Notes under the pieces: model-generated | Databases searched by the model: none | What the model was told of the DNA's origin: nothing | The model's input: the letters and a program-made list of their open reading frames with translations, nothing else | Made by a program: the position numbers and the translations under genes | Virus record (IMG/VR): IMGVR_UViG_3300047558_000238 | Location: 1-64,000 of that record | Strand: one strand, 5' to 3' | Length of the DNA: 64,000 nucleotides | DNA from: a virus | In this document: positions 4,015-23,015 of the stretch, piece by piece | How the letters are laid out: every line of letters begins with the position of its first letter | Numbering within the stretch: position 1 is the first letter of the stretch

Positions 4015-5415
4015 ATGGGCAAAAGTATTATGGAGCTGATTGCGATGCTCCCCGAAGAGGAGCGAGCGCAAGCTCTAGCCGACCTAGACCCCGAAGCATT
4101 GATGTGGGACTGGTCTGTTTGGGGACGCCCAGAGCAGCAAGCTCCTGAAGGCGACTGGAACATTTGGCTTGTACTTGCAGGACGTGGTTTCGGTAAGACT
4201 CGTCTAGCGTCCGAGTGGGTTCGCGAACAGGCTAAGTACACCAATACGGGCCAACGCCGTTTTGCACTTGTTGCTCGTACCGCAGCTGACGTACGTGACG
4301 TTATCGTTGAAGGTGAATCGGGCATTATGAATGTCACGCCACCTTCCGAGAAGCCACTCTACGAACCTTCGAAGCGTCGCCTAACTTGGCCTAACGGAAA
4401 TACAGCAACGCTATTCACCGCTGATGAGCCTGACTCGCTTCGTGGTCCTCAGTTCACTCATGCCTGGGGTGATGAGATCGCAGCTTGGCGTCAGACTCCA
4501 GATGCTGCAGGTATGACCGCGTTTGACAACTTGCGCGTTGGTACTCGTCTTGGTGATAAGCCAAAGATTCTTGTCACCACTACCCCGAAGCGTACGCCAC
4601 TGCTCTACAAGCTCATTGAAGAGGCAAATACTGGCCGCGTTGTGATTACCCGTGGTTCTACGATGGATAACGCAGGTAACTTGTCTGGCGCATATATGGA
4701 CACCATGCTTGGTGTTTACGAGGGAACCTCTCTTGCCCGCCAGGAGCTTTATGGTGAAATGCTTGAAGCCATGGAAGGCGCAATGTGGACAGAGGAGATG
4801 ATTGAAGCTGGCCGTGAAGCCATCTACCCACTCAGCACGCCTCTGCGCATCATTGGTGTTGACCCTAGCGTTGCAGAAAACCCTCGTGATGAGTGTGGAA
4901 TCGTAGTTGTATCGGCTACAGCAGAGTCTGACCTGTATAAGCGTCATGCTTGGGTGCTTGAAGACGCTTCAGTACTCGGTTCACCGACAGTTTGGGCTCA
5001 AAGAGTAGTTGATATGGCCCGTAAGTGGGGTTGCCCAGTTGTTGCTGAGGTAAACCAGGGTGGTGCGATGGTTAGAAACGCAATTAATACCATCGACCCA
5101 ACAATTAAAGTGCTTGAAGTCCACTCAAAGCAAGGAAAAGCCCTCCGAGCAGAGCCAATTTCGCTTGCATACGAGCAACAGCGCGTTCACCACGTTGGAT
5201 ATCTCGCAGATCTAGAGTCTCAGATGATTTCTTGGGTTCCAGGAGAGGGACGTTCACCAGACCGCATCGATGCACTAGTTCACGCACTCACTGCACTGCT
5301 CATTAAGCCACCAGCTGGCTTCTCTGGCGGAAAATTACGTGCAAAAAGCTTCGCTGACCGTAAAATTGGCATCCCAAACGGTAATCGTGGCGGAAAAATC
5401 TTCAGAATCAGGTAA
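4015..5415 (+). CDS. terL: Terminase large subunit
   Basis: Walker A GRGFGKT, Walker B WGDE, TTTP coupling motif, nuclease GVDPS and PDRIDA. Confidence 0.95.
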   Translation: MGKSIMELIAMLPEEERAQALADLDPEALMWDWSVWGRPEQQAPEGDWNIWLVLAGRGFGKTRLASEWVREQAKYTNTGQRRFALVARTAADVRDVIVEGESGIMNVTPPSEKPLYEPSKRRLTWPNGNTATLFTADEPDSLRGPQFTHAWGDEIAAWRQTPDAAGMTAFDNLRVGTRLGDKPKILVTTTPKRTPLLYKLIEEANTGRVVITRGSTMDNAGNLSGAYMDTMLGVYEGTSLARQELYGEMLEAMEGAMWTEEMIEAGREAIYPLSTPLRIIGVDPSVAENPRDECGIVVVSATAESDLYKRHAWVLEDASVLGSPTVWAQRVVDMARKWGCPVVAEVNQGGAMVRNAINTIDPTIKVLEVHSKQGKALRAEPISLAYEQQRVHHVGYLADLESQMISWVPGEGRSPDRIDALVHALTALLIKPPAGFSGGKLRAKSFADRKIGIPNGNRGGKIFRIR

Positions 5416-6072: not shown

Positions 6073-7812
6073 TTGGGAATTTTCAAACGCGAAGATAAGA
6101 AGTCGACCGGAGCTGCAAGCTCTGGCGTTCGCGCATCTGCACCTAAGAATGCAACACGAGTGGCTCCTGGAGTCTCTGTTGACTCATTTGGAATCGTATA
6201 CGCCGAACCAGCAGCGTTCAACGCGCCTCGCCCACTGACAGCTGCTGCTGCTCAGATTAGACTTGACGACAAAGGTGAAGCAGAGCAGTTTAAGTCACGC
6301 CGTCAGTCGGCTGCCACTGCCTGGCAGTCAGAAGCATGGGAGTACTACGATGCAATTGGTGAAATTAAATACGCTTTTAACCTTGTGGCGTCTGTCGTTT
6401 CGCGTATCCGTCTTTACGCAGCTGTTGTAGATAACCCAGCAGAAACTCCTGCACCTATTCGCTTAAGCGAGGCCATTGACGAGAACCTAGCTGCAGCTGC
6501 AGAGCGTGCACTTAGCCGTCTTGACAGCGCATACGGAGGCCAGGCTGGTCTTCTCAAGGATGCAGCCCTAAACCTTCAGGTTACCGGCGAGTGCTACCTT
6601 GTTCAGGTTCCAGAGCGTATCGGATCGGGCCTCCCCGAGTCATGGGACATCCGCTCTGTAGATGAGCTTCAGGTTGACGCTAAGGGCAGCTACATCATCA
6701 ATCCTCGTCGCGATGTCGGCGGTAGCAGCTCAATGATGGGCACCGGAACTAACCGAGATGCCATCCGTCTGCCAAATGGCTCATTTGTTGGTCGTGTATG
6801 GAGAAGCCACCCACGCTACTCAATGGAGTCTGACAGCTCGCTACGCGGCCTTCTAGACCTTTGTGCAGAACTACTGCTCCTGAACCGTACTTTCCGCGCT
6901 ACGGCCCGTTCTCGCCTCAATGCGGGTGCACTCTACCTACCTGATGGTCTCTCAGTAGCGGCGTCTCCAGACCCAGACTATCCATACGATTCAGAAGACG
7001 GTCTTGGTTCAGGTTTCACTGCTGAAGAAGCAGAAGATGAATTTGAAGAGCAACTTATCGATGCGATGACAACTCCGATTCGCGATGAAGAATCTGCGAG
7101 CGCGGTTGTTCCTCTTATCATTCGTGGTCCTGCAGAACTTGGTGACCGCATCAAGCAGTTCAAGTTCGAGCGTTCATTCGACCCAGCTCGTGCTCAGCGT
7201 GCAGACCGCGTACTAGAGCGCATCATGCAGGGCCTAGACGTCCCTAAGGACGTTGTGACGGGCCTAGCGAACGTTAAGTATTCTAACGCTCTTCAGATCG
7301 ATGAGGCCCTCTACAAGGCTCACATCGAGCCTCTGATGCTTCTTATCGTTGACGCACTGACAGTCATGTACTTGCGTCCATACCTGATTTCGATTGGCTA
7401 CCCAGAGTCTGAAGTTAGAAAAGTTCAGATTTGGTATGACCCATCTCAGGTTGCTACTCGCAATGACCGTGCTGCAGATGCTGACTCTGGCTTTGACAAG
7501 ATGGCAGTCAGCTTCGAAGCATGGAGACGTGCTCACGGATTCTCGGATGCAGATGCTCCGACTCCAAACGAAGTTGCAACTCGCCTACTGATGTCTCGAG
7601 CTATGTTCACTCCAGAGTTAACTCAGGCACTACTTGGAACGATCGCGCCTGACATCATGAAGAGCGCTCGCTCTGCATCTCAGGAAGCTTCTGGTGCAGA
7701 GATTCCACCAGAGGTAGATAAGATTCTCCAGGAGGCTACTGGTGTAGCTGCTCCTGGCGGTACCGAAGCCGTAGAGACTCCACCACCACCACTAGCTGAA
7801 CCAGAGGCATAA
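6073..7812 (+). CDS. Portal protein
   Basis: Follows terL, 579 aa; WQSEAWEYYDAIGEIKYA and NLQVTGECYL resemble actinophage portals. Confidence 0.85.
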   Translation: MGIFKREDKKSTGAASSGVRASAPKNATRVAPGVSVDSFGIVYAEPAAFNAPRPLTAAAAQIRLDDKGEAEQFKSRRQSAATAWQSEAWEYYDAIGEIKYAFNLVASVVSRIRLYAAVVDNPAETPAPIRLSEAIDENLAAAAERALSRLDSAYGGQAGLLKDAALNLQVTGECYLVQVPERIGSGLPESWDIRSVDELQVDAKGSYIINPRRDVGGSSSMMGTGTNRDAIRLPNGSFVGRVWRSHPRYSMESDSSLRGLLDLCAELLLLNRTFRATARSRLNAGALYLPDGLSVAASPDPDYPYDSEDGLGSGFTAEEAEDEFEEQLIDAMTTPIRDEESASAVVPLIIRGPAELGDRIKQFKFERSFDPARAQRADRVLERIMQGLDVPKDVVTGLANVKYSNALQIDEALYKAHIEPLMLLIVDALTVMYLRPYLISIGYPESEVRKVQIWYDPSQVATRNDRAADADSGFDKMAVSFEAWRRAHGFSDADAPTPNEVATRLLMSRAMFTPELTQALLGTIAPDIMKSARSASQEASGAEIPPEVDKILQEATGVAAPGGTEAVETPPPPLAEPEA

Positions 7813-7814
7813 TT

Positions 7815-8270
7815 ATGGATGAAAAAAATACACCGCTAGCTAAGGCTCTAGCAATCACTCTTAGTGACCTAGTTACCTTCAGCTTCATCGCTCAGGGGTA
7901 CCACTGGAACGTTATTGGCTCTGACTTCAAGGAGTACCACGGTCTTTTTGGTGACCTATACGGTGATGTCTCTGGCTCAATTGACCCAATTGCAGAGAAC
8001 ATCCTTAAGCTTGGCTTCGAGGCACCATACCTACTAGCAGACTTCCAGTCAATGACTCGTATCAACGAAGAGCGTGTTGTTGGTGGCGAGCCAGTCCAGA
8101 TGGTCGAGTCACTAGTACGAATCAACGAAGGCTTGATTGAAGAGCTTAAGGCCCTATTCCGCCTAGCTAATGAGCTAGACGAGCAGGGCATTGCAAACTA
8201 CACTGCTGACCGCATTGACGCCCACCAGAAGTGGCAGTGGCAGCTCAAGGCAACTCTAGGTATTCGCTAA
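7815..8270 (+). CDS. dps: Dps / ferritin-like protein
   Basis: HWNVIG..F...H.LF..LY, D.IAE, H.K..WQL Dps signature. Confidence 0.9.
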   Translation: MDEKNTPLAKALAITLSDLVTFSFIAQGYHWNVIGSDFKEYHGLFGDLYGDVSGSIDPIAENILKLGFEAPYLLADFQSMTRINEERVVGGEPVQMVESLVRINEGLIEELKALFRLANELDEQGIANYTADRIDAHQKWQWQLKATLGIR

Positions 8271-8893: not shown

Positions 8894-11728
8894 ATGTCTG
8901 ACATCCTTCTTGCCCTTCTAGCTGCCGACGGTAACTCAGCCGCGGCTCGTAGAGCCCGCGTAGCGCTTCAGCCTCGAGACAAGTACGGCCGCTGGGTCAC
9001 TACTGGAGCTCGACTATTCGCTAGCCTAGACCTTGGCAATGGTGCCTTTGGTAAGGTAAAGGGCCGCGCTATTGGTGGTACTAATAAAAAGGGCGAAATC
9101 CGTATGCTCGTGGGCAAGGGCTACGAGAAGTTCGGCATCCCTGAGAACACTGTACTGACAGTTAAGTCAACTAACGGTGAGCTATTTGCTGCAACTCTTG
9201 ATGCAGACTTCCTAAAGAAGAAGGGTATCGACCCTAACCTAAAGCACGCGCTACCTAAGGCTCTAGAGAACCAGCCTCAGACTCTGGCTTCGATGGACCC
9301 TCAGCCAGCTGACGCGCTTGACATTGATCTTGCTACAAACGGTCTTAGCGACGCTGAAGACAAGGAGCTCCGTAAGGAGCGTGACCAGGAGCCTCTAGCT
9401 AAGCTCCCGCCTGCAATGGAAGTTGCAGAAGGTCAGCAGGTTAAGGACATCGTTGAGTCTGCAGAAGCTGGCACACCAACTCCTGAAGCAACTCCTGAGG
9501 CTGAGACTCCTGTAGAAAAAGCAACTCTAGCTCCTGCCAGTTCTGCAGATGACGCTATTGCAAATGCACTTGCCAAGGTAGCTCTAGGTTACGATGCTCC
9601 AAACCTTGACACTCTGATTCAGGCAGCTCAGACTCCTGGAGCTAAGCCTAAGCTAATCAACACATCAATCAAGGACATTAAGGCTGGAGATATTATTCAG
9701 CTAACCCCTGTTAAGGGCGCTCCACCGGTTGACTATCGAGTTGTAAGCAATGCTCCTAGAACTACGCTAAATGGCGATACTGTATACGACCTTAAGATTG
9801 ATGACAATGGTCGAGTAGCTACTGTAATGAAGAACGGTATTGGTCCTCAATACTCGATTGGTCGCTACGATATTCCAGCCAAGCCAGCCGCTGCTCCTGC
9901 AGCAACTGCGCCTGCTAAGTCAGCCAAGCCAGCCAAGCCAGCCAAGCCAGCCAAGCCAGCCAAGCCAGCTGCTAATGCCCCTGCAGCTCCAGCTGCTCCA
10001 GCGGCTCCTGCAGCTGACGGCTCAGCTGCACTCACTCCTAAGAAGAAGGTGACTACTGGAACAAAGAAGCCTAAGAATCAGGCAATCCAGGCAGCACTTG
10101 CTAAGGGCCGCAAGGACGATGGTAAGGACATTACTCCAGACCCACTAAAGGGTCTAGATGACTACCGCAATAAGATAATCACTCCACTCTTTGATGAGAA
10201 TGGAAAGCCACTTCTTACTGGTAAGAAGGATGACAAGGGCAACCCGATTGCAGTTGAAGATCCAGACGCAATTGTCAATGCCCTTCTTGAAGAGAACCCT
10301 CAGGCAAAGGTTGACAAGGATGGCGCAATCATCCTTGAGCGTGGAGACTACACAGACGCTGATGGCACTGCCTTCAAGTATGAGGTAGCTGTCCAGAAGA
10401 CCCACGACAACAAGTTCATGGAGCGATACAGCTTCATCAATGCTGCAACTGGTGATCGCCAGGACTTCTACCACTACGACTACAAGGATAGCTTCAAGGG
10501 TATCTACGGAGAAAAGAACGGTGTAATGGTCTTTAGAGACCAGCTACTTGGTAAGTCGACTCCTGGAAACCCTAACAGCCCTGAAATCCAGAAGTGGTTT
10601 GGAAAGTACACCTCGCTAGAGCGTCGTATTCGCTACTTCCGTAACAAGTCAGGTGTTGGCAAGCAGATCGATGACCAGACTCTTGCTGAAGCAAAGAACA
10701 TGAAGCTCCTCACTCCTGATGAGGTAATCCGTAAGTACCTACACGGTAGACCTAGAACCCTTAACCGCAACGGTACTGTTGACCAGAAGTTCCTACAAAG
10801 CTTCTGGGAAATCCTAGATCAGGATGCATCAGCAACTAACCCTCAGGCTCTTGAGGCAATGGTACAGCTACTAGGTAGACTACCTGACAATGACAACTCA
10901 AGAGGTCTACTGATCTCTAACCTGAGAAAGACTATTGCTACCCGCTATGCAGGTAAGCCTGGTGCTCAGAAGCTAGCAACATTTGCTAAGAACATCGAAG
11001 TTCAGATCATGAATGGTGACTTCGACCTTCGCGACATCCAGCGCCGCCCATGGGCATCGCGTGATGGTAGAACAATCATCGAGCGTGGCGACAAGGTTCG
11101 CTACTATAACAACGAAGGTGAGACTTCTGTCGGTACAGTTCTTGGCTTGAACCCTTCAGTAGCAGGGTATGACGACACTGTTCGTATTCGCTTTGCTAAC
11201 GGAGTTGTATCTAACATTCTTGCAGCTAAGTACTTGGACCGTTTGACTGGCACTGATGAGGAAGATACTCCAGCATCTAAGTACATACCATCACTGAGAG
11301 GCGATGCTATGCGTGCTGCCCGTGGTGTTGTAGTCACACCAGGAGCACCTGCAGGTAAGGCTAAGTCTGAGAGAAATAGCAGCAACCCTAGCGTTGACTT
11401 TGGAGATAAGTCGAGACAGCAGGATGACGGCACTGATGGTCAGTCTTCTGACGTAGCAGATCCATACCTAGGAAACTCCGGTGCACCTGCTGATCAGGCT
11501 CCTGCCGCAGATGCCACTCCAGCAGCTCCAGTCGGAAACGTAGTACTGCTAGACACTGGAGACGCCTTCTATGGTCCTGATGGTAGCTACCTAGGTACAG
11601 TTGTAGAGACCATTGAAGTTGAAGCTAAGGATGGCGGAGAGCCTGGACTAGCTGTCTACTACATGGATGAAAATGGCGACGAGCACTACGACGTTCTAGA
11701 GAAGAGCGAGAACCGCGGCCCAAAATAA
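8894..11728 (+). CDS. Large putative internal head protein; short form of a -1 frameshift fusion
   Basis: SD GAGGA, N-terminal QPRDKYGRWV motif, Pro/Ala linkers; ends C CCA AAA TAA. Confidence 0.8.
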   Translation: MSDILLALLAADGNSAAARRARVALQPRDKYGRWVTTGARLFASLDLGNGAFGKVKGRAIGGTNKKGEIRMLVGKGYEKFGIPENTVLTVKSTNGELFAATLDADFLKKKGIDPNLKHALPKALENQPQTLASMDPQPADALDIDLATNGLSDAEDKELRKERDQEPLAKLPPAMEVAEGQQVKDIVESAEAGTPTPEATPEAETPVEKATLAPASSADDAIANALAKVALGYDAPNLDTLIQAAQTPGAKPKLINTSIKDIKAGDIIQLTPVKGAPPVDYRVVSNAPRTTLNGDTVYDLKIDDNGRVATVMKNGIGPQYSIGRYDIPAKPAAAPAATAPAKSAKPAKPAKPAKPAKPAANAPAAPAAPAAPAADGSAALTPKKKVTTGTKKPKNQAIQAALAKGRKDDGKDITPDPLKGLDDYRNKIITPLFDENGKPLLTGKKDDKGNPIAVEDPDAIVNALLEENPQAKVDKDGAIILERGDYTDADGTAFKYEVAVQKTHDNKFMERYSFINAATGDRQDFYHYDYKDSFKGIYGEKNGVMVFRDQLLGKSTPGNPNSPEIQKWFGKYTSLERRIRYFRNKSGVGKQIDDQTLAEAKNMKLLTPDEVIRKYLHGRPRTLNRNGTVDQKFLQSFWEILDQDASATNPQALEAMVQLLGRLPDNDNSRGLLISNLRKTIATRYAGKPGAQKLATFAKNIEVQIMNGDFDLRDIQRRPWASRDGRTIIERGDKVRYYNNEGETSVGTVLGLNPSVAGYDDTVRIRFANGVVSNILAAKYLDRLTGTDEEDTPASKYIPSLRGDAMRAARGVVVTPGAPAGKAKSERNSSNPSVDFGDKSRQQDDGTDGQSSDVADPYLGNSGAPADQAPAADATPAAPVGNVVLLDTGDAFYGPDGSYLGTVVETIEVEAKDGGEPGLAVYYMDENGDEHYDVLEKSENRGPK
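9921..9969 (+). repeat. 9-nt tandem repeat (CAGCCAAGC x5) encoding a PAK linker
   Basis: Seen directly in the sequence. Confidence 0.9.
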
Positions 11729-11773
11729 ATAGGGCTGCGGTACCGTCGACTCCAAACGACGGAACTTCAGCCC
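11719..11773 (+). promoter_or_regulatory. Programmed -1 frameshift signal (CCCAAAA plus hairpin)
   Basis: In-frame C CCA AAA, 6-nt spacer, GGGCTG/CAGCCC and CCGTCG/CGACGG stem; -1 frame open to 14733. Confidence 0.8.
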
Positions 11774-14733
11774 AGGCTCCTGCGGCAACTGTTAAGAGCA
11801 CTAGCGGTCGTGAGTTTGATACTAGTGCACTACGCGCACCTAGAAAAGTAGGTCCAGGTAGACCACCAAAGGTCATTAACCCACCTGATATGAAGCCACT
11901 TGAAGACCTCAAGAAGGCTATCTATGACAGCATTCCTGGAAACCATGACTCAGACAAGTTGAATAATCTTATCGATGCAGCAAAGGCTGCTCGAGAGGGT
12001 AACGATGAGCCAGCATATGTTAAGGCACTATTAGACCTAACTACCTTCCACAAGGATAGTTTTGCCGATGACGAGACGTACACTCCTCTCTCAGTTAAGG
12101 GCGACTCTTTCCTAGAGAAGAAGAGCGTGGCAATCATCACCGCCAGAACTCAGAAGTACGCTAGATCAGGTAACAAGCCTCAGACTGTAGCGGACGTACT
12201 AAAAGAGTCAGAGCGTTCACTGCGTAACAGACTGCCAAATATTTCGGCACTATTCGCAACCCATACTGGATGGGATGTCATCGGTCCTAGCCGTGAATCG
12301 CAGCGCCTCCAGGCCGAGTTCTCTGAGATCTACAAGAAGCTAGGAGCTTCAGACTCAGAGGCGTCATACAAGGCAATGACTAGCACCACTAAGGAGCTAA
12401 ACCGTCGCCGTGATGATGTTAACGCTGCAGTAATCACCGTTAAGAATGCTGGATCGAACAACGAAATCTATGTCCACATGGATGCAGACTCGTACGACCC
12501 AACTGACCCTAATGCTGGCTACATGCCTAAGGCTACTCAGGCTGACATCGACAATACAATCGACGCCATGAGAACTGCCACTAAGGGTGGTCTGTTCAAG
12601 GACCGCGTAGTAGTTCACTTATTGCCAGAAGCCTACAAAGTACCTAATTCAGACGGCTCTAGTGAGAAGAATACAGCAGCTTTTACCTATGACGGCTCTG
12701 ATCACATCTTTGCATTCGTAGATCGAATTAACGCACTTCCTGGCTCTACAGCAGCTCCAGCTGATTGGTGGTCAACAGATATTGTTGACTCTAAGACAGC
12801 ATATGGTCACATCATTTCGCACGAAGTTGGTCACCTACTAAAGAACAAGCTATATGGTGCCAAGAGCGGTAAGTCAGAGACTGACTTCAATACTGATGTT
12901 GAAAACTTCTCTGCTGGAAAGTACACTCCTGTAGCTACCCCTGAAGCTGCAACCTCTAAGAGCTCAATAAACATTGACCCTGTAGCTGATCTAGGTATCG
13001 ATACTGACGGCATTGTAAAATCTAAGACCACTGCTGGCTCGGACCTATCAGGCCAGACATTGACTAGACAGCTGGGCTCTAACCCAGGCGGGTTTACAAC
13101 TGACCCTACTACTGGCGAGACAGTCTACGTTAAGGTGCAAAAGAGCGAGCTACATGCTCAGAATGAGACTCTAGCTGCAGCATTCTATGCTAAAGCTGGT
13201 CTGATGTCTGCCGATACTCGACTAGGCACTAAAGATGGTCAGGTAATTACTTACGCACCGAATATCCCTAACGCTCAGACTGGTATCGACTATAGCGATA
13301 AGGGCTTCATCGAGAAGCTACAGAAGGGCTATGCAATGGACGCTCTTCTAGCTAACTGGGATAGCATGGCAAACGATGCCAATATCATGCGCGACATGAG
13401 CGGTAATCCTATCTGGATTGACCCAGGCGGCTCGCTACTGTTCAGAGCTCAGGGTGCTCGTAAGACCAACTTTGGTGATACTGTATCTGAACTTGACAGC
13501 CTAATCACTTCTACTTCTACTGGAACTAGAGTGTATGGTTCGATGACACCTCAGCAGAAGACTGACAGTGCAAAGCTAGTACAGCAGATTACTCATGCTG
13601 ATATCGACATTCTAGTTAATGGAATCATTACAGATCCAGTTGAAGCCAAGCGCCTGAGAGATACTCTCAAGAACCGTCGAGACTATATCCTTAAGCGTTT
13701 CAACCTAGAACTAGATCTAGATAAGGCGAGAGCAGATGCTCATGCTAGAAGTAACCAAGCTACTCCGACGAAGACTTCCACTAAGCTAGGAACCCCTAGC
13801 GGCAAGCCAGAACCAGTGAGCGGCCGTGGCACTGAAGACTTTGACGAGAACTTCGCCGAGCTGTATGCAAGATTTGTTCAAACTGATGATGAAGTTCCTC
13901 AGTGGTTTGTTGATCTTCTTGCAAGCCACGGCATCTCGAAGAGAACTGCTAGTAAGCTGTGGAGAGCTAACCACTCTGCAGAGGTACAGCACCTTCATGA
14001 TCAAATTGACAAGATGCTAGACCCTACCTTCCTCGGTGAGTTTAGCCAGCTTCGCGCTCAGAACCCTGGCATGCGTCAAAGTATTTATGGTCAAATGATT
14101 GCAAAGCTAAATGGCACCGATGGCGAAAAGCCAGAAGTAGTCAAGACACTAGACTCTAAGAAAGCTACAGTCTATCGTGGAGTTCACTCGGATAGTCATA
14201 GAAGAGGTAGCGCTGCTGCTAAGGCAGAGGTTGCTAAATTTAGAGATGAGTTTATAAATGGACTCATAGCTTATATGTCTAATACGACTGTGTACGGTAG
14301 CGGAACCTACTCCTCTACAAATAAGTCAACATCTCTGAGCTACTCCAATGGCGAGTCAGATCATGACCACCTATGGCAGATGAACATTAAGCCAGGTGCA
14401 AAGCTAGTAACATATGGTGGCCAGAGCAATATCGATCCAACGTTCCCGGACTTTACAGGAACCATCGATACCCTCAAGCGCAGCATGAAGTCGACACTCG
14501 CAGAGCGCGTTCAAAACGAGATGTTCCCCGACCTTGACACTACTGACCCTCAGGTAGTAGCCGAGGTGGACCGTCTTATGAAGGAGCTTCCACTAAGTGT
14601 TGGTGACTCTACCTCTAATATTGCTGGACTATTGGGCTATGATGGGGTAGAGTTGGTCATGGGCCGAGAAAGCTATGTGATTTACTTCAACCGAGGTATC
14701 TTCCAGATCCTTGACCCAGGGACAACCCCGTAG
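11725..14733 (+). CDS. Multi-domain effector: zinc metallopeptidase + HipA/PI3K-like kinase + ADP-ribosyltransferase-like; probable frameshift extension of 8894
   Basis: HEVGH...ENFAE; LGSNPGG/VYVK/NE/NWD..N/IDPG; VYRG..YGSGTYSS..GYDGV. Frame is open from the slippery site, upstream of the 11890 ATG. Confidence 0.7.
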   Translation: MNRAAVPSTPNDGTSAQAPAATVKSTSGREFDTSALRAPRKVGPGRPPKVINPPDMKPLEDLKKAIYDSIPGNHDSDKLNNLIDAAKAAREGNDEPAYVKALLDLTTFHKDSFADDETYTPLSVKGDSFLEKKSVAIITARTQKYARSGNKPQTVADVLKESERSLRNRLPNISALFATHTGWDVIGPSRESQRLQAEFSEIYKKLGASDSEASYKAMTSTTKELNRRRDDVNAAVITVKNAGSNNEIYVHMDADSYDPTDPNAGYMPKATQADIDNTIDAMRTATKGGLFKDRVVVHLLPEAYKVPNSDGSSEKNTAAFTYDGSDHIFAFVDRINALPGSTAAPADWWSTDIVDSKTAYGHIISHEVGHLLKNKLYGAKSGKSETDFNTDVENFSAGKYTPVATPEAATSKSSINIDPVADLGIDTDGIVKSKTTAGSDLSGQTLTRQLGSNPGGFTTDPTTGETVYVKVQKSELHAQNETLAAAFYAKAGLMSADTRLGTKDGQVITYAPNIPNAQTGIDYSDKGFIEKLQKGYAMDALLANWDSMANDANIMRDMSGNPIWIDPGGSLLFRAQGARKTNFGDTVSELDSLITSTSTGTRVYGSMTPQQKTDSAKLVQQITHADIDILVNGIITDPVEAKRLRDTLKNRRDYILKRFNLELDLDKARADAHARSNQATPTKTSTKLGTPSGKPEPVSGRGTEDFDENFAELYARFVQTDDEVPQWFVDLLASHGISKRTASKLWRANHSAEVQHLHDQIDKMLDPTFLGEFSQLRAQNPGMRQSIYGQMIAKLNGTDGEKPEVVKTLDSKKATVYRGVHSDSHRRGSAAAKAEVAKFRDEFINGLIAYMSNTTVYGSGTYSSTNKSTSLSYSNGESDHDHLWQMNIKPGAKLVTYGGQSNIDPTFPDFTGTIDTLKRSMKSTLAERVQNEMFPDLDTTDPQVVAEVDRLMKELPLSVGDSTSNIAGLLGYDGVELVMGRESYVIYFNRGIFQILDPGTTP

Positions 14734-15662: not shown

Positions 15663-17795
15663 ATGAACTTCTTGGGCTCTTCCGAGAGATTTGCACTTTT
15701 TTCCCTCGATGGATACACGGTAGCTGTAGATATCGAGGCTAATGCAATTGCAGAGGTCACCAGCTCTGCAGTTTTAGCATCCCTAGAAGGATCCCTAAGC
15801 AAGGAAGAAGTTAGCGAAGCTGTCGCTAATACCGCTAGACAGGCACTAGAGTCCGTCATTGCCGCAGCGAATGAGACAGACCGCATGTACACTATCCCCG
15901 GTGGGGTTCAGGCAGAAGCTAAGAAAGCACTAGCTTGGCGCAAGGAACACCGTCGCGGTGGAACTCCTGTAGGCATTAATACTGCCCGCACTCTTGCAAA
16001 GGGTGGCCAGATTGGCATCAAGAAGATTCGCCACATTGCCAAGTATTTCCCTCGTCACGAGGTGGATAAGCAGGGCAAGGGCTGGAAGCCTGGAACATCT
16101 GCATTCCCGTCAAATGGCCGCATCGCCTGGGCACTTTGGGGTGGAGATGCCGCATGGCGCTGGGCAGAAGCTATCGTAGAGCGCGAGAATAAGAAGGTGC
16201 TCACTGCTAGTGGCTACGATACCGTCGAGCTAACATCCGTAGATAGCCCTTCATACTCATCTGAAGTTAGCCCTTTCAAGATTGCTCATGAACTAGACAT
16301 CAATGCTGGTCCAGAATTTATGGCTAGAGTCCGCATGGATGGTTCTGGGATCGATCGACTCTACAAGATTGATATCGATGGTCGTGTATTTGTCTGGGAC
16401 GACTGCGGCTGGGACACTCTAGGCCACGTTGATGGCGATGTTTATACCTACGATGCTGCACTAGATGATCCGTACGACATGGTCGAAAAAGATTATGTGA
16501 TTATTGATCCTAGTTCGGCAGTAATTATTTCTGCATTTATGCAGGAGCGCCCATTCCAGCCAGTATCTATCGATGAGATTGACCCAGAAGAGGCATCAAT
16601 CGTATACGACGGGCTAGCTGACGAGGACTTCACGCTAGTGGATCGAGTTCTTCTTGCTGCTGGCCCTGCAGGGTCTGCTTCAGATGCTCCAACCTCAGAT
16701 GGTCAGTACACTCCTGAAGAGCGAGCTAAGAATGTTAAGGCTCAGCCTAGAGATGCTCGCGGTCTATTTGTCAAGGTAGGTGCTAGAACTATAGTTGGCG
16801 GTGACCCAGTACGCGGTCAGGGAACTATCTCAGCTATCAATGAGGATAAAGGCACTGTATCAGTACGTCTAGACAATGGTAGAACTGTAGAAGTTGACCC
16901 TAAGCACACTAAGGCTCCAGGTCTAGGCCTTAAGAGCGGGCAGAACTTAGTGCCTAGCCAGGAAGACTATCCACTAGATATGTCTGGCATTATTGGTGAG
17001 CCTAGAACTCCACACAACCAGCCAAAGGCGCATCTGCCTGGCACCTTAAAGCCTCTAACCGACAAAGAGATCAACCTTATGGTCTCAAACTTCCCTAAGT
17101 ATGTCCAGCAGATGCGTGCATCATACAAGGCAAAGGATGCAGCAGACAAGGCTAGAGTCCAAAAGAAGTGGGGCAAGGATGTCGGAAGCGACTTCAGCAT
17201 CACTGCTGCTGCCACTGAAGAAGAGGCTCTAACCCCTAAGACTTCAGATGTCCCTGCGAAATACCTAGCAATCGTATCGCCAGACGATAAGTCAGCTGTA
17301 ATGGATGTTGTTGCAATTGTCCCTAAGACTGTGACTACCACTGAGCCAATGCTATATGAGCGCAAAGATGGCAAGTGGGTAGCCAACGAGCAGATTCTAG
17401 GTGACCTAAAGTCAGCAACCCCACCTCCAGTAGTTGAGCTGGACGAGAAGGAGGTACTAAATGATGTACTCCTTCAGGTGGACGATAAGGTAGGCGTAAC
17501 TGCTTCAGCTAACTTAGACTTCAGCCAGTTCTGGAGCACTGTAGTCGAGCCTCTTCTTTCAGCAGGCGGTCTAGATCACAACCGTGGCAACGCAGAAAAG
17601 CTTCGCCGCTACTGGGTCCACGGAGAAGGCGCTGCCAAGATTCGTTGGGGTCAGCCAGGTGACTGGAAGCGCTGCGTTAAGCATCTATATAAGTACATTG
17701 GTCCAAGAGCTAAGGGCTATTGCCAGCTTCGTCACAAGGAAGCTCTAGGCTACTACACCTCAACACACGCTAAAAAGGATCGCAATAATGGCTAA
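15663..17795 (+). CDS. Multi-domain head-associated protein
   Basis: IAWALWGGDAA domain, QPRDARGLFV motif, C-terminal domain duplicated in the next gene. Confidence 0.75.
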   Translation: MNFLGSSERFALFSLDGYTVAVDIEANAIAEVTSSAVLASLEGSLSKEEVSEAVANTARQALESVIAAANETDRMYTIPGGVQAEAKKALAWRKEHRRGGTPVGINTARTLAKGGQIGIKKIRHIAKYFPRHEVDKQGKGWKPGTSAFPSNGRIAWALWGGDAAWRWAEAIVERENKKVLTASGYDTVELTSVDSPSYSSEVSPFKIAHELDINAGPEFMARVRMDGSGIDRLYKIDIDGRVFVWDDCGWDTLGHVDGDVYTYDAALDDPYDMVEKDYVIIDPSSAVIISAFMQERPFQPVSIDEIDPEEASIVYDGLADEDFTLVDRVLLAAGPAGSASDAPTSDGQYTPEERAKNVKAQPRDARGLFVKVGARTIVGGDPVRGQGTISAINEDKGTVSVRLDNGRTVEVDPKHTKAPGLGLKSGQNLVPSQEDYPLDMSGIIGEPRTPHNQPKAHLPGTLKPLTDKEINLMVSNFPKYVQQMRASYKAKDAADKARVQKKWGKDVGSDFSITAAATEEEALTPKTSDVPAKYLAIVSPDDKSAVMDVVAIVPKTVTTTEPMLYERKDGKWVANEQILGDLKSATPPPVVELDEKEVLNDVLLQVDDKVGVTASANLDFSQFWSTVVEPLLSAGGLDHNRGNAEKLRRYWVHGEGAAKIRWGQPGDWKRCVKHLYKYIGPRAKGYCQLRHKEALGYYTSTHAKKDRNNG

Positions 17796-20700
17796 TGAAG
17801 AGTTTATGATGGAAGAAGTTTGGGGCGAAAATATCGGTACACCTACAGAAGTCACCGATGAAGATATGCTTATGCCAATCGAGGACATTCTCGATGAGGT
17901 AGATGACTTATATGAGGACTCATGGGCTCCAGACGAGGAGACATGTAAGAATCTAGAAGATCTGGCAGAGTGCACTGATGAGGAGTTTGCACTACTTGCA
18001 GCCGGTGGCCTTGACCGCAACCGTGGCAATGCTGAGCAGCTCAGACAGTACTGGACCAGAGGAGAAGGCGCTCTTAAGATTCGTTGGGGAACTCCTGGCG
18101 ACTGGACCCGTTGCGTTCGTCAGCTTTCGAAGTACATGGGCCCTCGTGCAAAGGGATACTGCCAGCTTCGTCACAAGGAAGCTACCGGTCTTTACACTGG
18201 AAGCAAATTCAATCCTGGAAATAGAGACTCTCTAACTTCGTCACTGTTTGCGTCTGAAGACGAGATGGTGGATAAACTCATTACGAAGAGCGCCCTTACC
18301 GCTAGAGCTAACGATGCTAAGGCTAAGTTTGGTCTAGTTGCCGCTGCTCCACTGGCAGCTGAAGGCGCTAAGTTCCGTATTCCTCTCCTAATCCCGGAGC
18401 AGCTAGAGTCTGGCGATGGTCGTAGCTTTAAGAGAGATGCTATCTCTATTCGAGAGCTCCCTCTACCTCTACTATGGCAGATTAAAACTGGTGACGGTCA
18501 CGCTGGCTCAGTTGTAGTTGGTCGAATTGACTATGTAGAGCGTACTGAACAGGGCATCGGAAATGCTTATGGCGTATTTGATACTGGTGTATACGGGCAA
18601 GAAGCCGAGAGATTAGTGCGTAACGGATTCCTCCGTGGAGTTTCTGCTGACCTAGACCAGTTCCAGGCTACTGAAGAGAAGCAGCCAAAGAAGGCTGAAG
18701 CTTCAGATCTAGAAAATGCAGGCGAGATTGGCAAGGATAAGCTTGTAGTAAATAAGGCACGTGTAATGGCTGCTACAATTGTAGCTAAGCCTGCATTTCA
18801 AGAGTGCACTATTTCTATTGAAGAATCTGGGGACCAGGAGGAAACTATGACCCCTAACGACGGTATTTACGAGGAGTCAGTGGACTTCAGCACCGTCGAA
18901 CCGATTACTGCCTCTGGATTCCTTTCAGAAGAGATTCCGGTTACTCCTCCTCAGGAGTGGTTCGAAAACCCTAAGCTAACTAAAGCTACTCCACTTACTA
19001 TTGAGCCAGATGGTCGTATCTATGGCCACATTGCCGCATGGCACGTGAATCACATCGGCATGCCTCGCTCAACTCGTCCTCCACGCTCTAAGAGCAAGTA
19101 TGCTTACTTCCACACTGGCGTTGTTCGTACCGACTCTGGCAAGGACATCCCTGTTGGTCAGCTAACCCTAGCTGGTGGACACGCTGACTTACGTGCAAGT
19201 GCAGCCCAGGCTGCTAAGCACTACGATGACACCGCATCTGCTATTGCTGATGTTCACGCTGGTGAAGACGAGTATGGAATCTGGGTAGCAGGCTCACTAA
19301 GACCAACCGCTACCGAAATGCAGATTCGCGCTCTTCGTGCTTCCGCTCCTTCAGGTGACTGGCGTCCAATCAACGGCTCGCTTGAGCTGGTTGCAGTGTG
19401 CCAGGTAAATGTTCCAGGATTCCCGATTGCCCGTGCTCTTGTTGCTTCTGGCAAGGTTATGTCTCTGGTTGCAGCTGGAGCTAGCTTCCTAGCCATGATG
19501 AAGAGCGATGCTGTAACCCACTTTGCTGTTAAGGCTCAGGAGCTTGGCGAACTAGCTACATCTACTCCAGACTTGAAGGACCGCGTAAAGGCCAAGAAGG
19601 CTAACATGCGTAAGTTTGCTATCGAATCTGCAGCTACCAAGGTAGAAGACATGCGTCATCGTGCTCTTGTTGCATCTGCAGTTGCTGAGCTTGCAAAGTT
19701 CTCGGATGAAGAACGCGCTAAGCTCGCTGAGACTGGCGAAGCTCTTCCAGATGGCTCATACCCAATCCGCAACGAGCAGGATCTAAAGAATGCAATTCAC
19801 GCATACGGAAGATCTACTCCTAAGGACCGTGCAAAGGTTCGCACTCACATTCGTAAGCGTGCTAAGGCTTTGGGTCTTGCAGCACTTGTTCCTGAAGAGT
19901 GGAAGGCTGCAGCCTCTATCGAAGCTGCTACCTCTGTAGCTCAGATGCGTGCTTCTATTACTGCTGCGCTAATTGCTTCTGCATCAGCATCAGCAGAGCC
20001 TGCTGAAATGGTTCTCCTAGATACAGTGGAGCTATCAAGCGATGACTATTTGTCTACAATCATCGAGAACAACGCTCAGGACTCTGACCCAAAAGCATCT
20101 AGCTACCCAGCTGTAACTGCTGCACTACCTGCAGAAAGCGAGTTCGCTGAGGTAGCTAAAGATCAGATCTCTGATGTAGAGCTAGAGAAGCTTCGTAAGG
20201 CAAAAGAAGAAGCCGATAAGCAGACTGAAGATCAGATTAAACTAGCAGAAGACATTAAAGCTGGTAAAACTACAGTTCAAGACTTGTACGACGAAAAAGG
20301 TCGTCAGAAGTATGTATCTGGAGTGAACCAGCCTCGTGATGCTAAGGGTAAGTACCGTAAGGTTCTAGCCAGACTTAAGCAAGACCTAGGTGTTGCTGGT
20401 CTTCAGAAGGCTCTAAAGAAGGTAGAAGACGCTGAGAACATGGATTTTGCGGGTAACTATGCAGAATCTGCTAAGGCCAGCGAAGAACTTCTTGGAATGA
20501 TTGACCGTCTAGATGCTAAGGCACTTAACCCTAAGGCGCTAGAGAATGTTAAAGCTACTGCAGCTGAACTAGGCAAGGTAATCTCAAACCTACCTTTGCC
20601 TTTCGGTGAAGATGCAGAAAAAGTTAGATTTAGCGATCTACCAGCGGGACTCAAGGATCTCATCGACTCGATGATTACTAGAGTCGAAGCAAAGATCGGT

Positions 20701-20817
20701 AAAAAGGATGCAGATGTTGCCACTCAAAATCTGCGTTCATTTATGTCTGGAGCAGACGTTTATTCTCAGGGCGAAGTTCAATCTGAGATGAGCAAATTGC
20801 TCCGACTCCTTACCTAA
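17788..20817 (+). CDS. Capsid maturation protease, multi-domain
   Basis: LPLLWQ..GHAGSVVVGRI..GVSAD..ATIVAKPAF core; GHIAAW..SGDWR..VNVPGFP second domain; directly upstream of the capsid gene. Confidence 0.8.
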   Translation: MANEEFMMEEVWGENIGTPTEVTDEDMLMPIEDILDEVDDLYEDSWAPDEETCKNLEDLAECTDEEFALLAAGGLDRNRGNAEQLRQYWTRGEGALKIRWGTPGDWTRCVRQLSKYMGPRAKGYCQLRHKEATGLYTGSKFNPGNRDSLTSSLFASEDEMVDKLITKSALTARANDAKAKFGLVAAAPLAAEGAKFRIPLLIPEQLESGDGRSFKRDAISIRELPLPLLWQIKTGDGHAGSVVVGRIDYVERTEQGIGNAYGVFDTGVYGQEAERLVRNGFLRGVSADLDQFQATEEKQPKKAEASDLENAGEIGKDKLVVNKARVMAATIVAKPAFQECTISIEESGDQEETMTPNDGIYEESVDFSTVEPITASGFLSEEIPVTPPQEWFENPKLTKATPLTIEPDGRIYGHIAAWHVNHIGMPRSTRPPRSKSKYAYFHTGVVRTDSGKDIPVGQLTLAGGHADLRASAAQAAKHYDDTASAIADVHAGEDEYGIWVAGSLRPTATEMQIRALRASAPSGDWRPINGSLELVAVCQVNVPGFPIARALVASGKVMSLVAAGASFLAMMKSDAVTHFAVKAQELGELATSTPDLKDRVKAKKANMRKFAIESAATKVEDMRHRALVASAVAELAKFSDEERAKLAETGEALPDGSYPIRNEQDLKNAIHAYGRSTPKDRAKVRTHIRKRAKALGLAALVPEEWKAAASIEAATSVAQMRASITAALIASASASAEPAEMVLLDTVELSSDDYLSTIIENNAQDSDPKASSYPAVTAALPAESEFAEVAKDQISDVELEKLRKAKEEADKQTEDQIKLAEDIKAGKTTVQDLYDEKGRQKYVSGVNQPRDAKGKYRKVLARLKQDLGVAGLQKALKKVEDAENMDFAGNYAESAKASEELLGMIDRLDAKALNPKALENVKATAAELGKVISNLPLPFGEDAEKVRFSDLPAGLKDLIDSMITRVEAKIGKKDADVATQNLRSFMSGADVYSQGEVQSEMSKLLRLLT
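20088..20158 (+). promoter_or_regulatory. Second candidate -1 frameshift signal (CCCAAAA plus hairpin), truncating
   Basis: In-frame C CCA AAA, 5-nt spacer, TAGCTACCCAGC / GCTG-A-GGTAGCTA stem; -1 frame stops at TAG 20100. Confidence 0.55.
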
Positions 20818-20935: not shown

Positions 20936-22997
20936 GTGTACGACCAGATCAAGACTCAGCTTGACACTATCACTGAACTTAGCGACGAACAGGTCGCTGA
21001 GCTACAGGCAGATATTGTCAGCCAGTTTGAAATGGTTGAGGGTGAAGACCCAACTCCTGAGACAGTTGATGCTATGACGTCGCTAGCCGACTCTCTTGAC
21101 ATCGTACGTGGCGAGCTTTCTCGTCGCGAAGCAGCTGCTGCAGAACTTGCAGCTAAGGCTGCAGAGGCTGTTGCCCGTGTCAAGGGCGAAGCAGCTGACG
21201 CTGGAGAGGAAATGGCTATGACCGAAGACATGCCGATGGAAGAGGAGACTCCTGTAGAGGAAGCTCCAGCAGCTGAAGAGGAAACTCCAGAAGTTGCTCC
21301 AGAGGAAGAGGTCGAGGTAGAGGCAGAAGAGGAAAAGGAAGAGGAGAAGGAGCCTGTAAAGGCTTCTGGCGAATCTGAAGTTCCTGCTGAAGCAACTGCT
21401 GAAGAGGTCGCTACCGAGACTGTGGCTGACGCCCCAGTTGAGGCTGAGGCCGCTGCTGAAGAAGCAGCCGTCGAGGTTACTGAAGAAGTTACAGAGCTTG
21501 CTGCTGATGCAGTAGAGACTACTGAACTTGCTTCAGAGGCTATTACCGAAGCATCAACCGATCAGGTAGATGGATCTGAACTATCAACCGAAACCACCGT
21601 AGAAGAGACCGAAGAACTAGCAACCGAGGTTGCTGAAGGTTCAGAGGCTTCTGCAGAAGAAATCAACGAAACATCAATTGCTCTTGAAGAGCAGGAAGGG
21701 CAGGCATCCGTGACCGCCGCAGCAGAACAGCCATTCGAGGCTCCAGCTGACCGCCAGCCTGTAGTTCAGGTTAACGAAGCACCAGTAGCAATTACTGCTG
21801 GAGCAGACATCCCTGGTTACACCGCTGGTAGCACAATTAACGACATGTACGAAGTAGCTCAGGCTATGGAGAAGCGTATCCACTCGCTTCGCCGTGTCAA
21901 TGGTGGAGATGGAGAGCAGCACATTGTTGCATCTGTAACCACTTCATTCCCAGAAGAGCGCACTCTAACCACAGACGCGCTGTCAAACGCAGCTAAGATC
22001 GAGGCTGTTGTTGGCCAGGACGCACTTGTTGCTTCTGGTGGACACGCTGCTCCATTCGAAGTTAAGTACGACATCTTCGCACAGGGTTCAACCACTGTTC
22101 GCCCAATCCGCGATGCACTGCCTCGCTTCCAGGCTGACCGTGGCGGTATCCGCTTCGTAACCCCACCTTCATTCGCTTCAGGTGACTACGCTAACGCTGT
22201 AGGTCTTTGGACCGCTGCTGTTGACGCAGACCCACAGGGTGCAACCAAGACCAGCTTGACTGTCTCGGCTGCTTCTGAGAACACCGTTTCAACTGACGCT
22301 GTAACCCTACAGCTACAGTTCGGTAACCTCATGACCCGTGCTTACCCAGAGCTAATTGCTCGTCACAACGAGCTTGCTCTTGTACAGCACGCTCGTGAAG
22401 CAGAGCAGAACCTTCTTTCGAAGATTGGTGCTGGTTCGACCGCTGTTACCACCTCATCGCTAATCGGTTTCGGCCGTGACTTCCTTGTACAGGTTCGTCG
22501 CGCTGCAACTGCTTACCGTTCACGTCACCGTATCTCGCCAGACGCTCGCCTGAAGGTAATCATCCCTGCATGGATCTACGACGCAATGGCAGCTGACCTT
22601 GCTCTTGCAATGCCAGGTGACGGTACTCTAGCAGTTTCGAAGGCTGAAATCGAGGGCTACCTAGCTACACTAAACGTGGACCTAGTTACCTCGCTAGACG
22701 CTAACGTATTCGGTGCACAGGGTGCTGGTGCTCTTGTAGAGTTCCCAGACTCATTCACCTGGTACCTATTCGCTGAGGGAACCTTCTTGTTCCTTGACGG
22801 CGGAAACCTAGACCTAGGTATCATCCGTGACTCGTCACTTGTTGGAACCAACGACTACAAGATGTTCGTTGAGACCTTCGAGAACGTTGCCAAGGTTGGT
22901 ATCTCTAGCAATCACCTCGACCATCTCGGTCAACGGTGTTGCTGCTGCTCTACGCGACACCACTGGTGGCGCAGCTGCAGCTGCTATCGAGCTCTAA
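20936..22997 (+). CDS. Major capsid protein with acidic scaffold-like N-terminus; apparent indel near 22901
   Basis: SD AAGGAGG + GTG; Glu-rich N-terminus; FLDGGNLDLGIIRDS..NDYKMFVETFE. Natural-looking C-terminus continues in the +1 frame to TAA 22997 (track frame ends 23005). Confidence 0.85.
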
Positions 22998-23015
22998 GCC
23001 GATAGAAACTCGTGA

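Follow-up and report, generated by a model that had tools for sequence, protein, structure and literature searches.

A -1 frameshift signal, conserved in a family of uncultured phages, that probably appends a large enzyme module to a protein of the head gene module

Background

Programmed frameshifts in tailed phages are textbook knowledge for tail chaperones and for a few capsid proteins, and the part that is added is short and structural. In phage T7, a -1 frameshift in gene 10A/10B extends the capsid protein. The E. coli dnaX gene, which encodes tau and gamma, carries the heptamer A AAA AAG and a hairpin; the shifted ribosome terminates at once and the frameshift product is the shorter one. 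In retroviral Gag/Gag-Pol, a slippery heptamer and a structure at the gene end extend a structural carrier with enzymes. The locus described here lies in the IMG/VR virus record IMGVR_UViG_3300047558_000238, a record of 107 kb of which the first 64 kb (64,000 nucleotides [nt]; "the window") were analyzed. As judged from sequence and its comparison with relatives, positions 8894-14733 of the window most probably (probability about 0.88) represent one recoded gene, in which a -1 frameshift at C CCA AAA would lead to two proteins, a carrier of 944 amino acids (aa) and an extended form of 1946 aa.

Frameshifting at -1 has also been described for the major head protein gp5A/5B of Lactobacillus phage A2 (Garcia et al. 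2004, as cited in ref. 41 of PMC10885494) and for the lambda tail assembly chaperone gpG/gpGT (Xu, Hendrix, Duda 2004, as cited in ref. 39 of PMC7302621). Effectors joined to phage proteins have been described as polyvalent proteins, which are multi-effector polypeptides with a zincin-like peptidase that was proposed to process them and to release the enzymes (Iyer et al. 2017, PMC5512222), as MuF-fused effectors or polymorphic toxins (Jamet et al. 2017, PMC5576092), and as MuF-VIP2 fusions in Microbacterium phages (PMC7302621). Packaging and injection have been suggested for both the polyvalent proteins and the MuF-effector fusions (PMC5512222, PMC5576092, PMC7302621). The authors of PRFect suggested, without going beyond the suggestion, that a frameshift could link MuF and VIP2 where these are encoded by separate genes (PMC10885494). 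Apart from this speculation, full-text literature searches retrieved no account of frameshifting as a means of joining a large enzyme module to a carrier from the head module.

Results and Discussion

Elements of a -1 frameshift signal in the window

The open reading frame (ORF) of the carrier ends in GGC CCA AAA TAA. The features in and around this end are as follows.

8894-11728, + strand: carrier gene, ORF of 944 aa in the 0 frame, no known family
11719-11725, + strand: slippery heptamer C CCA AAA, of the form X XXY YYZ and in frame with the ORF 8894-11728
11726-11728, + strand: 0-frame stop TAA, directly after the heptamer, ending the 944-aa form
11732-11773, + strand: hairpin of 15 bp with an 8-nt loop, 6 nt after the heptamer
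11725-11889, + strand: initial 55 codons in the -1 frame, which encode a Pro-rich linker, resemble an intergenic gap and include no ATG, GTG or TTG
11890-11892, + strand: ATG used by gene callers, unconserved, aligning with W, F or H in relatives
11890-14733, + strand: ORF of 947 aa as a gene caller would call it

An earlier note, made from the letters of this DNA alone, had claimed that a heptamer stands directly before the stop of the 944-aa ORF, that a hairpin follows six nt downstream and that the -1 frame is open into the ORF 11890-14733. The sequence of the heptamer and stop is exactly as claimed, and the hairpin arms were placed correctly as well: GGGCTG (11732-37) pairs with CAGCCC (11768-73) and CCGTCG (11743-48) with CGACGG (11757-62), with three further pairs between them. 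The region 11719-11800 folds with a minimum free energy of -32.8 kcal/mol (z -4.63), and 0 of 200 shuffles were as stable. The -1 frame stays open over 11671-14733 and lacks ATG, GTG and TTG upstream of 11890. Over 11715-11730, the assembly shows CCCAAAAT, with a run of four A's. A slip of one base at this site would join 944 and 1002 aa to a product of 1946 aa with the junction ...RGPK|INRAAVPSTPNDG, so that the junction peptide begins ...RGPK-INRAAV...

A function of the hairpin as an intrinsic terminator was considered and rejected because no U-run follows it and no terminator-like match was found on the + strand. Simple scans of the + strand between the ORFs revealed neither a terminator-like nor a promoter-like site, and a search of Rfam around the slip site gave no match.

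Four features expected of a bacterial or phage -1 site are present, i.e., an in-frame heptamer, a downstream structure within 5-9 nt, an open, start-less and coding -1 frame, and conservation beyond coding need. Two of the observations in the window carry little weight by themselves. First, CCCAAAA occurs 5 times in the window against 6.1 expected, and the heptamer alone is therefore not unusual. Second, the lack of an obvious Shine-Dalgarno (SD) sequence upstream of ATG 11890, as pointed out in the earlier note, is real, with only AAGG at -21 to -18, but represents weak evidence since a clear SD is missing from many genes of this phage. Because the heptamer is common by chance and the SD argument is weak, the case rests on comparison with relatives, where heptamer, stop, spacer, hairpin and a long -1 ORF are conserved together in independent contigs, a combination that is above chance.

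Conservation of the signal in related loci

Related loci (designated by L numbers) were identified in DNA from viral, metagenome and genome collections. In a large protein collection, homologues of the carrier form 34 clusters, 20 of which end in ...R-x-P-K. Twelve loci (L002-L007, L009-L011, L013, L028 and L043; approximately 10 distinct lineages), with proteins of 35-47% identity at the aa level, carry C CCA AAA directly before a TAA or TAG stop; a hairpin begins 4-6 nt downstream of the heptamer, and the -1 ORF comprises 300-740 aa. In these loci Pro is invariably encoded by CCA and Lys by AAA, and the codon before CCA, which is GGC, CTC, GTC or TCC (encoding G, L, V or S), invariably has C as its third base. 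Conservation of this wobble C is only relevant to re-pairing of the P-site tRNA. Moreover, the two frames share only 10-16 nt in several loci, with the heptamer inside the overlap, which fixes the location of the shift.

In the subgroup closest to the window, the outer stem GGGCUG/CAGCCC of the hairpin is invariant and the inner stem shows one compensatory pair; covariation is thus modest. The stronger argument for the hairpin is not covariation but the presence of different hairpins at the same place in distant relatives, as the hairpins of L004, L006/L010 and L011 are built from other sequences. A still more distant clade (L019, L020, L022, L024, L031 and L032, the last a TARA marine contig; approximately 25-32% identity) has carrier genes that end in CCA AAA AAA GNC TAG or CTA AAA AAA TAG, which represents an in-frame A AAA AAA heptamer, with another, GC-rich hairpin 5-6 nt downstream and a -1 ORF that comprises 261-901 codons. 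The occurrence of another heptamer together with another hairpin in this clade indicates that the device was kept while its parts were exchanged. Conservation of heptamer and hairpin in homologous phages, which the earlier note had named as a check of its proposal, was thus found in 12 related loci, and the distant clade uses an alternative signal; counted as distinct relatives, the phages with a conserved slip site number approximately fifteen.

These comparisons also bear on the mechanism by which the two frames are joined. The fusion could be real but arise from slippage of RNA polymerase, with one extra A in the mRNA, which would yield an identical protein; the runs of 7 A in the distant clade are compatible with this mechanism, as transcriptional slippage at runs of such length is known in bacteria. 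The four A's found in the window and in 12 relatives are, however, too short for efficient slippage of this kind, the conserved X XXY YYZ pattern including the wobble C matters only to tRNA re-pairing, and a hairpin at a distance of 4-6 nt is the arrangement of a ribosomal signal. RNA polymerase slippage is consequently unlikely on four A's and as a general explanation appears quite improbable, while it may contribute in the clade with 7 A's.

Coding status of the apparent intergenic gap and naturally fused genes

If the -1 frameshift takes place, the 55 codons between the heptamer and ATG 11890 would be translated. The -1 translations of relatives align with that of the window from residue 1, including these 55 codons 5' of ATG 11890, and the first ATG in the -1 frame of relatives is found only 89-203 codons past the junction. 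A comparison of L007 with L013 over the first approximately 105 codons past the junction shows 6, 1 and 40 differences at codon positions 1, 2 and 3, respectively (38 synonymous and 5 non-synonymous codon changes), and the corresponding numbers for L002 and L003 are 20, 16 and 54. This pattern indicates that the protein directly after the junction, which is beyond the reach of ordinary initiation, is under purifying selection. The DNA of an 83%-identical relative was sought to test for selection in the gap of the window itself, but none was found. By the same comparison, ATG 11890 most likely encodes an internal Met rather than a start.

Additional evidence comes from relatives in which the two parts form a single ORF. 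The single-ORF homologues P0020, P0024, P0025 and P0027 read ...E-x-RGPK-I..., i.e., the sequence of the predicted trans-frame junction. In the DNA of the in-frame loci L014 and L015 this region reads CGC GGC CCT AAG CTA; RGPK is retained, the codons are non-slippery and there is no stop. No hairpin was found in the in-frame L014, as the 82 nt after the junction fold no better than shuffles (z -0.87). Heptamer, stop and hairpin are therefore jointly present where a shift is needed and jointly absent where it is not.

The alternative that the locus consists of two independent genes, with translation of the 947-aa ORF starting at ATG 11890 or resuming by re-initiation downstream of TAA 11726 and with a heptamer and hairpin that are incidental or serve mRNA stability, can draw on the existence of this ATG, on its use by gene callers, on a 947-aa form in databases (P0035/P0036), and on the fact that a strong SD is absent from many genes of this phage, which means that a missing SD proves little. 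It does not account for 55 codons 5' of the ATG that are homologous to coding sequence and under purifying selection in relatives, for relatives that have no ATG for 89-203 codons and that align W, F or H with the Met of the window, for the existence of in-frame fused relatives, or for a heptamer, stop, spacer and hairpin that are kept together and are lost together in fusions.

An indel introduced by sequencing or assembly into the A-run of one continuous 1946-aa ORF is conceivable as well, since homopolymer indels are common errors and in-frame relatives exist. However, the four-A run and stop recur in 12 further contigs, which derive from different samples and assemblies, and the A7 version in 6 more, while the in-frame relatives do not carry an extra A but the non-slippery CCT AAG CTA without a hairpin. 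The view of the earlier note that an indel would hardly coincide with both heptamer and hairpin is borne out by the recurrence of both in these 12 and 6 further frameshift-type contigs. The joint presence and absence of the signal elements, the coding gap and the natural fusions together exclude, for practical purposes, an independent downstream gene, which is very improbable, and an assembly indel, which is even less credible and close to negligible. The proposal of the earlier note that a -1 frameshift leads to forms of 944 and 1946 aa hence holds up, in view of the conserved signal, the purifying selection, the lack of a conserved start and the signal-free in-frame fusions.

A third architecture was observed in L008 (L008:6502-10503), L029 and L030 (proteins P0019, P0021 and P0022), where an in-frame extension of approximately 320-480 residues takes the place of the last approximately 55-80 carrier residues, RGPK among them. 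In L008 and L030 these proteins end in ...LLGSGK or ...LMLGSAK, the ATG of the next gene overlaps the stop (TAATG) and there is no slip site.

The carrier and the appended enzyme module

The 944-aa carrier has a conserved N-terminal domain with a QPRD motif, with the N-terminal segment being the most conserved part, and several small SH3/Tudor-like barrels, the last of which (aa ~880-944) lies just before the slip site. Its AF2 model has a pLDDT of 73.7 and its sole matches are Tudor/SH3-like (Z <= 8.4); fold searches with Foldseek against PDB and BFVD and with VIA (wide) returned only such barrels, and Atlas gave no usable match. The carrier did not match Pfam (E <= 0.01) or PHROGs. Among cultured phages, no match was found to the region by megablast or to the carrier by tblastn.

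The 1002-aa extension (ext; residues counted from the junction) also had no match among Pfam, PHROGs and PDB sequences, but its AF2 model has a mean pLDDT of 83.6. Following the disordered Pro-rich linker (ext 1-55), the model points to these parts:

11890-12924, + strand: N-terminal part of a zincin-like metallopeptidase region (ext 56-400), conserved with the 700-aa extensions of relatives
12820-12834, + strand: HEVGH (ext 366-370), an HExxH motif
13033-13710, + strand: protein-kinase-like domain (ext 437-662), between the HExxH helix and the Glu helix
13846-13869, + strand: ENFAELYA helix (ext 708-715), predicted third-ligand Glu helix of the peptidase
14002-14733 (including the stop), + strand: C-terminal domain (ext ~760-1002), possibly ADP-ribosyltransferase-like

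Matches to the zincin fold span ext 158-738, with Z 10.8 for a lethal-factor-type catalytic domain and Z 8.9 and 8.3 for Pro-Pro endopeptidases. The HExxH motif is present in 12 of 14 extensions examined, and the HExxH and ExFAExYA core is found in most of them, including those of the marine relative and of in-frame fusions, which marks the peptidase as the ancestral cargo; both hhalign and BLASTP link the ENFAELYA region to the marine relative L032. In relatives, ExFAExYA follows HExxH after approximately 45 aa as compared to 342 aa in the window, and the 700-residue extensions lack residues 400-700 of the window's extension and with them the kinase-like domain. This domain is therefore nested inside the peptidase in the lineage of the window.

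For the kinase-like domain, VIA found matches to H. pylori CtkA (3akj; Z 15.4, rmsd 3.4, 203 aligned residues), CotH (5jda; Z 14.2) and PI4K II alpha (Z 13.5), and the Foldseek E value was 1.3e-4. A Gly-rich loop (GSNPGG), NWD...N and DPGG are found both in the sequence and in the family consensus. Ext 437-662 thus fits the protein-kinase-like superfamily (atypical kinases such as CtkA, CotH and PI4K), the hallmarks of which are a kinase-like fold with Gly-rich loop, Lys, catalytic D...N and DxG, and represents a putative kinase. With the zincin-like fold, two effector domains are hence found in one polypeptide. An assignment of ext 449-661 as an ADP-ribosyltransferase (ART), which is how matching phage proteins are annotated, was rejected because the fold is kinase-like. 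The public annotation could be traced to proteins that pair the kinase-like domain with a neighboring true ART domain; in P0144, the Pfam ART domain adjoins the kinase-like domain and is not within it. The family of the kinase-like domain, which has no name, is very large, with 2858 cluster representatives at E <= 0.001 (P0044-P0186 among the proteins), mostly inside proteins of 1500-7000 aa, while stand-alone members have no Pfam match.

The C-terminal domain is conserved with the C-terminal 300 aa of relatives. Searches of Atlas with ext 760-1002 linked it to ART-PolyVal clusters by features (0.92) and to ART-PolyVal, MuF-fused and PARP clusters by structure (TM 0.4-0.57), and the extension of L032 has a DRAT match at the Pfam cut-off. 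None of the PolyVal Pfam families was matched by hmmscan of the extension and 23 relatives.

In L011 (L011:10414-11331) it is an RNase T/DEDD-type exonuclease domain (Pfam E 5e-13), and not the peptidase core, that opens the extension, and the contig ends after 306 codons. This suggests an exchange of cargo behind a constant slip site.

Gene neighborhood and the case for packaging

The + strand of the window carries a structural operon that extends from the terminase through the tail genes, and the recoded gene is located within its head portion:

4015-5415, + strand: large terminase
6073-7812, + strand: portal gene (phrog_776), TTG start
between the portal gene and the 944-aa ORF, + strand: two small genes
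3' of the 947-aa ORF, + strand: two small ORFs, then an ORF of 710 aa
17788-20817, + strand: ORF of 1009 aa with a head-maturation-protease-like region
20936-23005, + strand: major head protein (phrog_777)
23982, + strand: major tail gene
28306-31179, + strand: tape measure gene

In the distant relatives L009 and L032, neighboring ORFs are alike in size and order to those of the window; a Pfam scan of the portal-sized and other large ORFs in these two loci gave no match. Between the portal and capsid maturation protease genes, the cultured Actinomycetia phage DSL-LC01 carries a single ORF of 3289 aa, which contains the same kinase-like domain. The phages are probably actinobacterial, based on one metagenome-assembled genome (MAG) label (Actinomycetota), one MAG protein name and the similarity to DSL-LC01.

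The carrier is presumably a head protein, in view of this gene order and by analogy with cargo proteins of the polyvalent and MuF-fused types. According to the proposed mechanism, most ribosomes would translate the 944-aa carrier and terminate at TAA 11726. Some ribosomes would pause at the hairpin 11732-11773 with CCA and AAA in the P and A sites, slip back by one base at C CCA AAA and translate the -1 frame as far as 14733. An abundant short form and a minor long form would follow the usual logic of -1 frameshifting. The long form would carry the Pro-rich linker, the zincin-like metallopeptidase with its nested kinase-like domain and a C-terminal domain that may be an ADP-ribosyltransferase, and would co-assemble through its carrier part into the procapsid. 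Frameshift efficiency would then set the number of enzyme modules per capsid that are delivered into the host with the DNA, and the zincin peptidase could process the polyprotein and release the enzymes. That the carrier is located in the head interior, that the long form co-assembles with it, that the efficiency of the shift sets the enzyme load per capsid and that the peptidase processes the polyprotein are, taken jointly and by analogy, somewhat more probable than not.

Alternatively, the frameshift could be real while its products are not packaged but act inside the cell, for instance as a factor for head assembly or processing or as a late take-over enzyme. The carrier matches no known virion protein family, and the conserved core of the extension is a peptidase that could process head proteins, both of which would fit such a role. 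On the other hand, the gene lies between the portal gene and the protease-like and major head genes, in a run that is alike by size and order in two distant relatives, and the same slot in DSL-LC01 is occupied by a giant multi-domain ORF. Kinase-like and ART-like domains on head-module proteins are typical of injected effectors of the polyvalent and MuF type (PMC5512222, PMC7302621), and enzymes that are made late would be useful against the host only if carried into the next cell. An intracellular role of the products thus seems doubtful, though it has more in its favor than any of the alternatives to the frameshift itself.

Several points weigh against the reading of the locus as a recoded gene for a carrier with packaged enzymes. 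RGPK is kept even in in-frame relatives, and part of the nucleotide conservation at the junction therefore also serves protein coding. The run of 7 A in the clade with A AAA AAA could also permit RNA polymerase slippage. No recognizable head, MuF or portal-binding domain was found in the carrier by Pfam, PHROG and fold searches; the Phage_Mu_F domain (PF04233) that defines MuF-fused toxins was likewise not found in it at Pfam E <= 0.01. With no recognizable head domain in the carrier, gene order is the one line of evidence that places it in the virion. Finally, since no Pfam family was matched by sequence, the identity of the last domain as an ADP-ribosyltransferase is only a lead from model comparisons.

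Several further observations concern the genes around the recoded locus. Directly after the portal gene lies a gene of approximately 151 aa that matches phrog_3636 (DNA-binding protein), the two genes together spanning 6073-8270; at L009:3436-5635 and L032:37-2257, a TTG-started portal-sized ORF is also followed by an ORF of 151-152 aa. A domain of approximately 120 aa is duplicated across a gene boundary (17418-17765 and 17839-18204), with residues 586-701 of the 710-aa protein being 52% identical (E 2e-35) to residues 18-139 of the 1009-aa protein and both copies matching phrog_6439. The motif QPRD-x-x-G is present in three proteins, i.e., the carrier (aa 26; 8969-8980), the 710-aa protein (aa 361; 16743-16754) and the 1009-aa protein (aa 848; 20329-20340), and may represent a shared targeting or cleavage motif of head-module proteins.

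A possible second slip site in the protease-like gene

At 20088-20158 in the ORF 17788-20817, in the linker before the C-terminal domain, C CCA AAA is found in frame for a second time, with a hairpin (z -2.5) after it. In the window and in L035 (L035:1509), a -1 slip at this site would stop after 2-5 codons, giving a truncated form. In the record of L003 (L037:1513/L040:2316) the roles are swapped, as the 0 frame ends 10 codons further on and it is the -1 frame that encodes the conserved C-terminal domain of 220 aa. The second heptamer is absent from L036, L038 and L039. It could represent a second recoding site or reflect an assembly indel in L037; as a recoding site, it may yield forms of the protease-like protein with and without the C-terminal domain.

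Comparison with described systems

Like Gag/Gag-Pol, the locus would encode a short carrier form to which some ribosomes append a large, start-less enzyme module that includes a protease. It differs from Gag/Gag-Pol in belonging to a tailed dsDNA phage, in having a hairpin rather than the retroviral pseudoknot or stem-loop, in the lack of homology, and in that packaging is presumed. The enzymes differ too, as Gag-Pol carries an aspartic protease, reverse transcriptase and integrase, whereas the predictions here are a zincin peptidase and a kinase-like domain, with an ADP-ribosyltransferase as a possible third.

As in A2 gp5A/5B and T7 10A/10B, -1 slippage close to the 3' end of a gene in the head module would produce a C-terminally extended second form at a fixed ratio. 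In those phages, however, the major capsid protein receives a short non-enzymatic extension, while the locus described here has a 944-aa carrier with 1002 aa of enzymes and a separate major head gene. As no capsid protein matched the carrier and the major head gene is located at 20936-23005, the recoded gene is not that of the major capsid protein. Lambda G/GT shares with this locus a -1 frameshift in a structural operon, a common N-terminal part, a position that is kept while sequences diverge, and some lineages with fused or separate genes. However, G/GT encodes small proteins between the major tail and tape measure genes, usually without a strong hairpin, whereas the slip site reported here is located in the head module, between the portal gene (6073) and the major head gene (20936), and not between the major tail (23982) and tape measure (28306) genes where tail chaperones are found.

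The combination of several effector domains (zincin-like peptidase, kinase and ADP-ribosyltransferase) on one head-module protein resembles polyvalent and MuF-fused proteins, with the head role being presumed here. While those are single in-frame polypeptides, the effectors would here be attached by recoding, a cargo-free carrier would also be made, and there is no MuF domain. The signal itself is of the bacterial type and resembles that of dnaX, with a Lys-codon heptamer and a hairpin 5-6 nt downstream, and the distant clade uses A AAA AAA; unlike in dnaX, the shift would lengthen the protein by approximately 1000 aa.

Conclusions

Frameshift-extended structural proteins of phages and in-frame fusions of effectors to head proteins are already known; recoding that would append approximately 1000 residues of enzymes appears to be new, as judged from full-text searches. 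With a slight leaning in its favor, the relatives can be read as a family of uncultured freshwater and marine phages with a Gag-Pol-like strategy, in which a frameshift sets the number of injected, self-processing multi-enzyme modules. These modules would consist of peptidase, kinase, ADP-ribosyltransferase and, in some relatives, exonuclease; the signal would have been swapped between C CCA AAA and A AAA AAA or lost by fusion, and the heptamer may have been reused in the neighboring protease-like gene.

Gene callers split the recoded gene and thereby invent a start (ATG 11890) and an intergenic gap, which leads to mis-annotation of effectors in metagenomic phage catalogues. With three signal types as well as in-frame fusions, the family provides natural controls for bacterial -1 frameshifting. 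It also offers a testable model of how phages may control the copy number of injected enzymes for host takeover or anti-defence, and a defined delivery context for the widespread, unnamed kinase-like domain.

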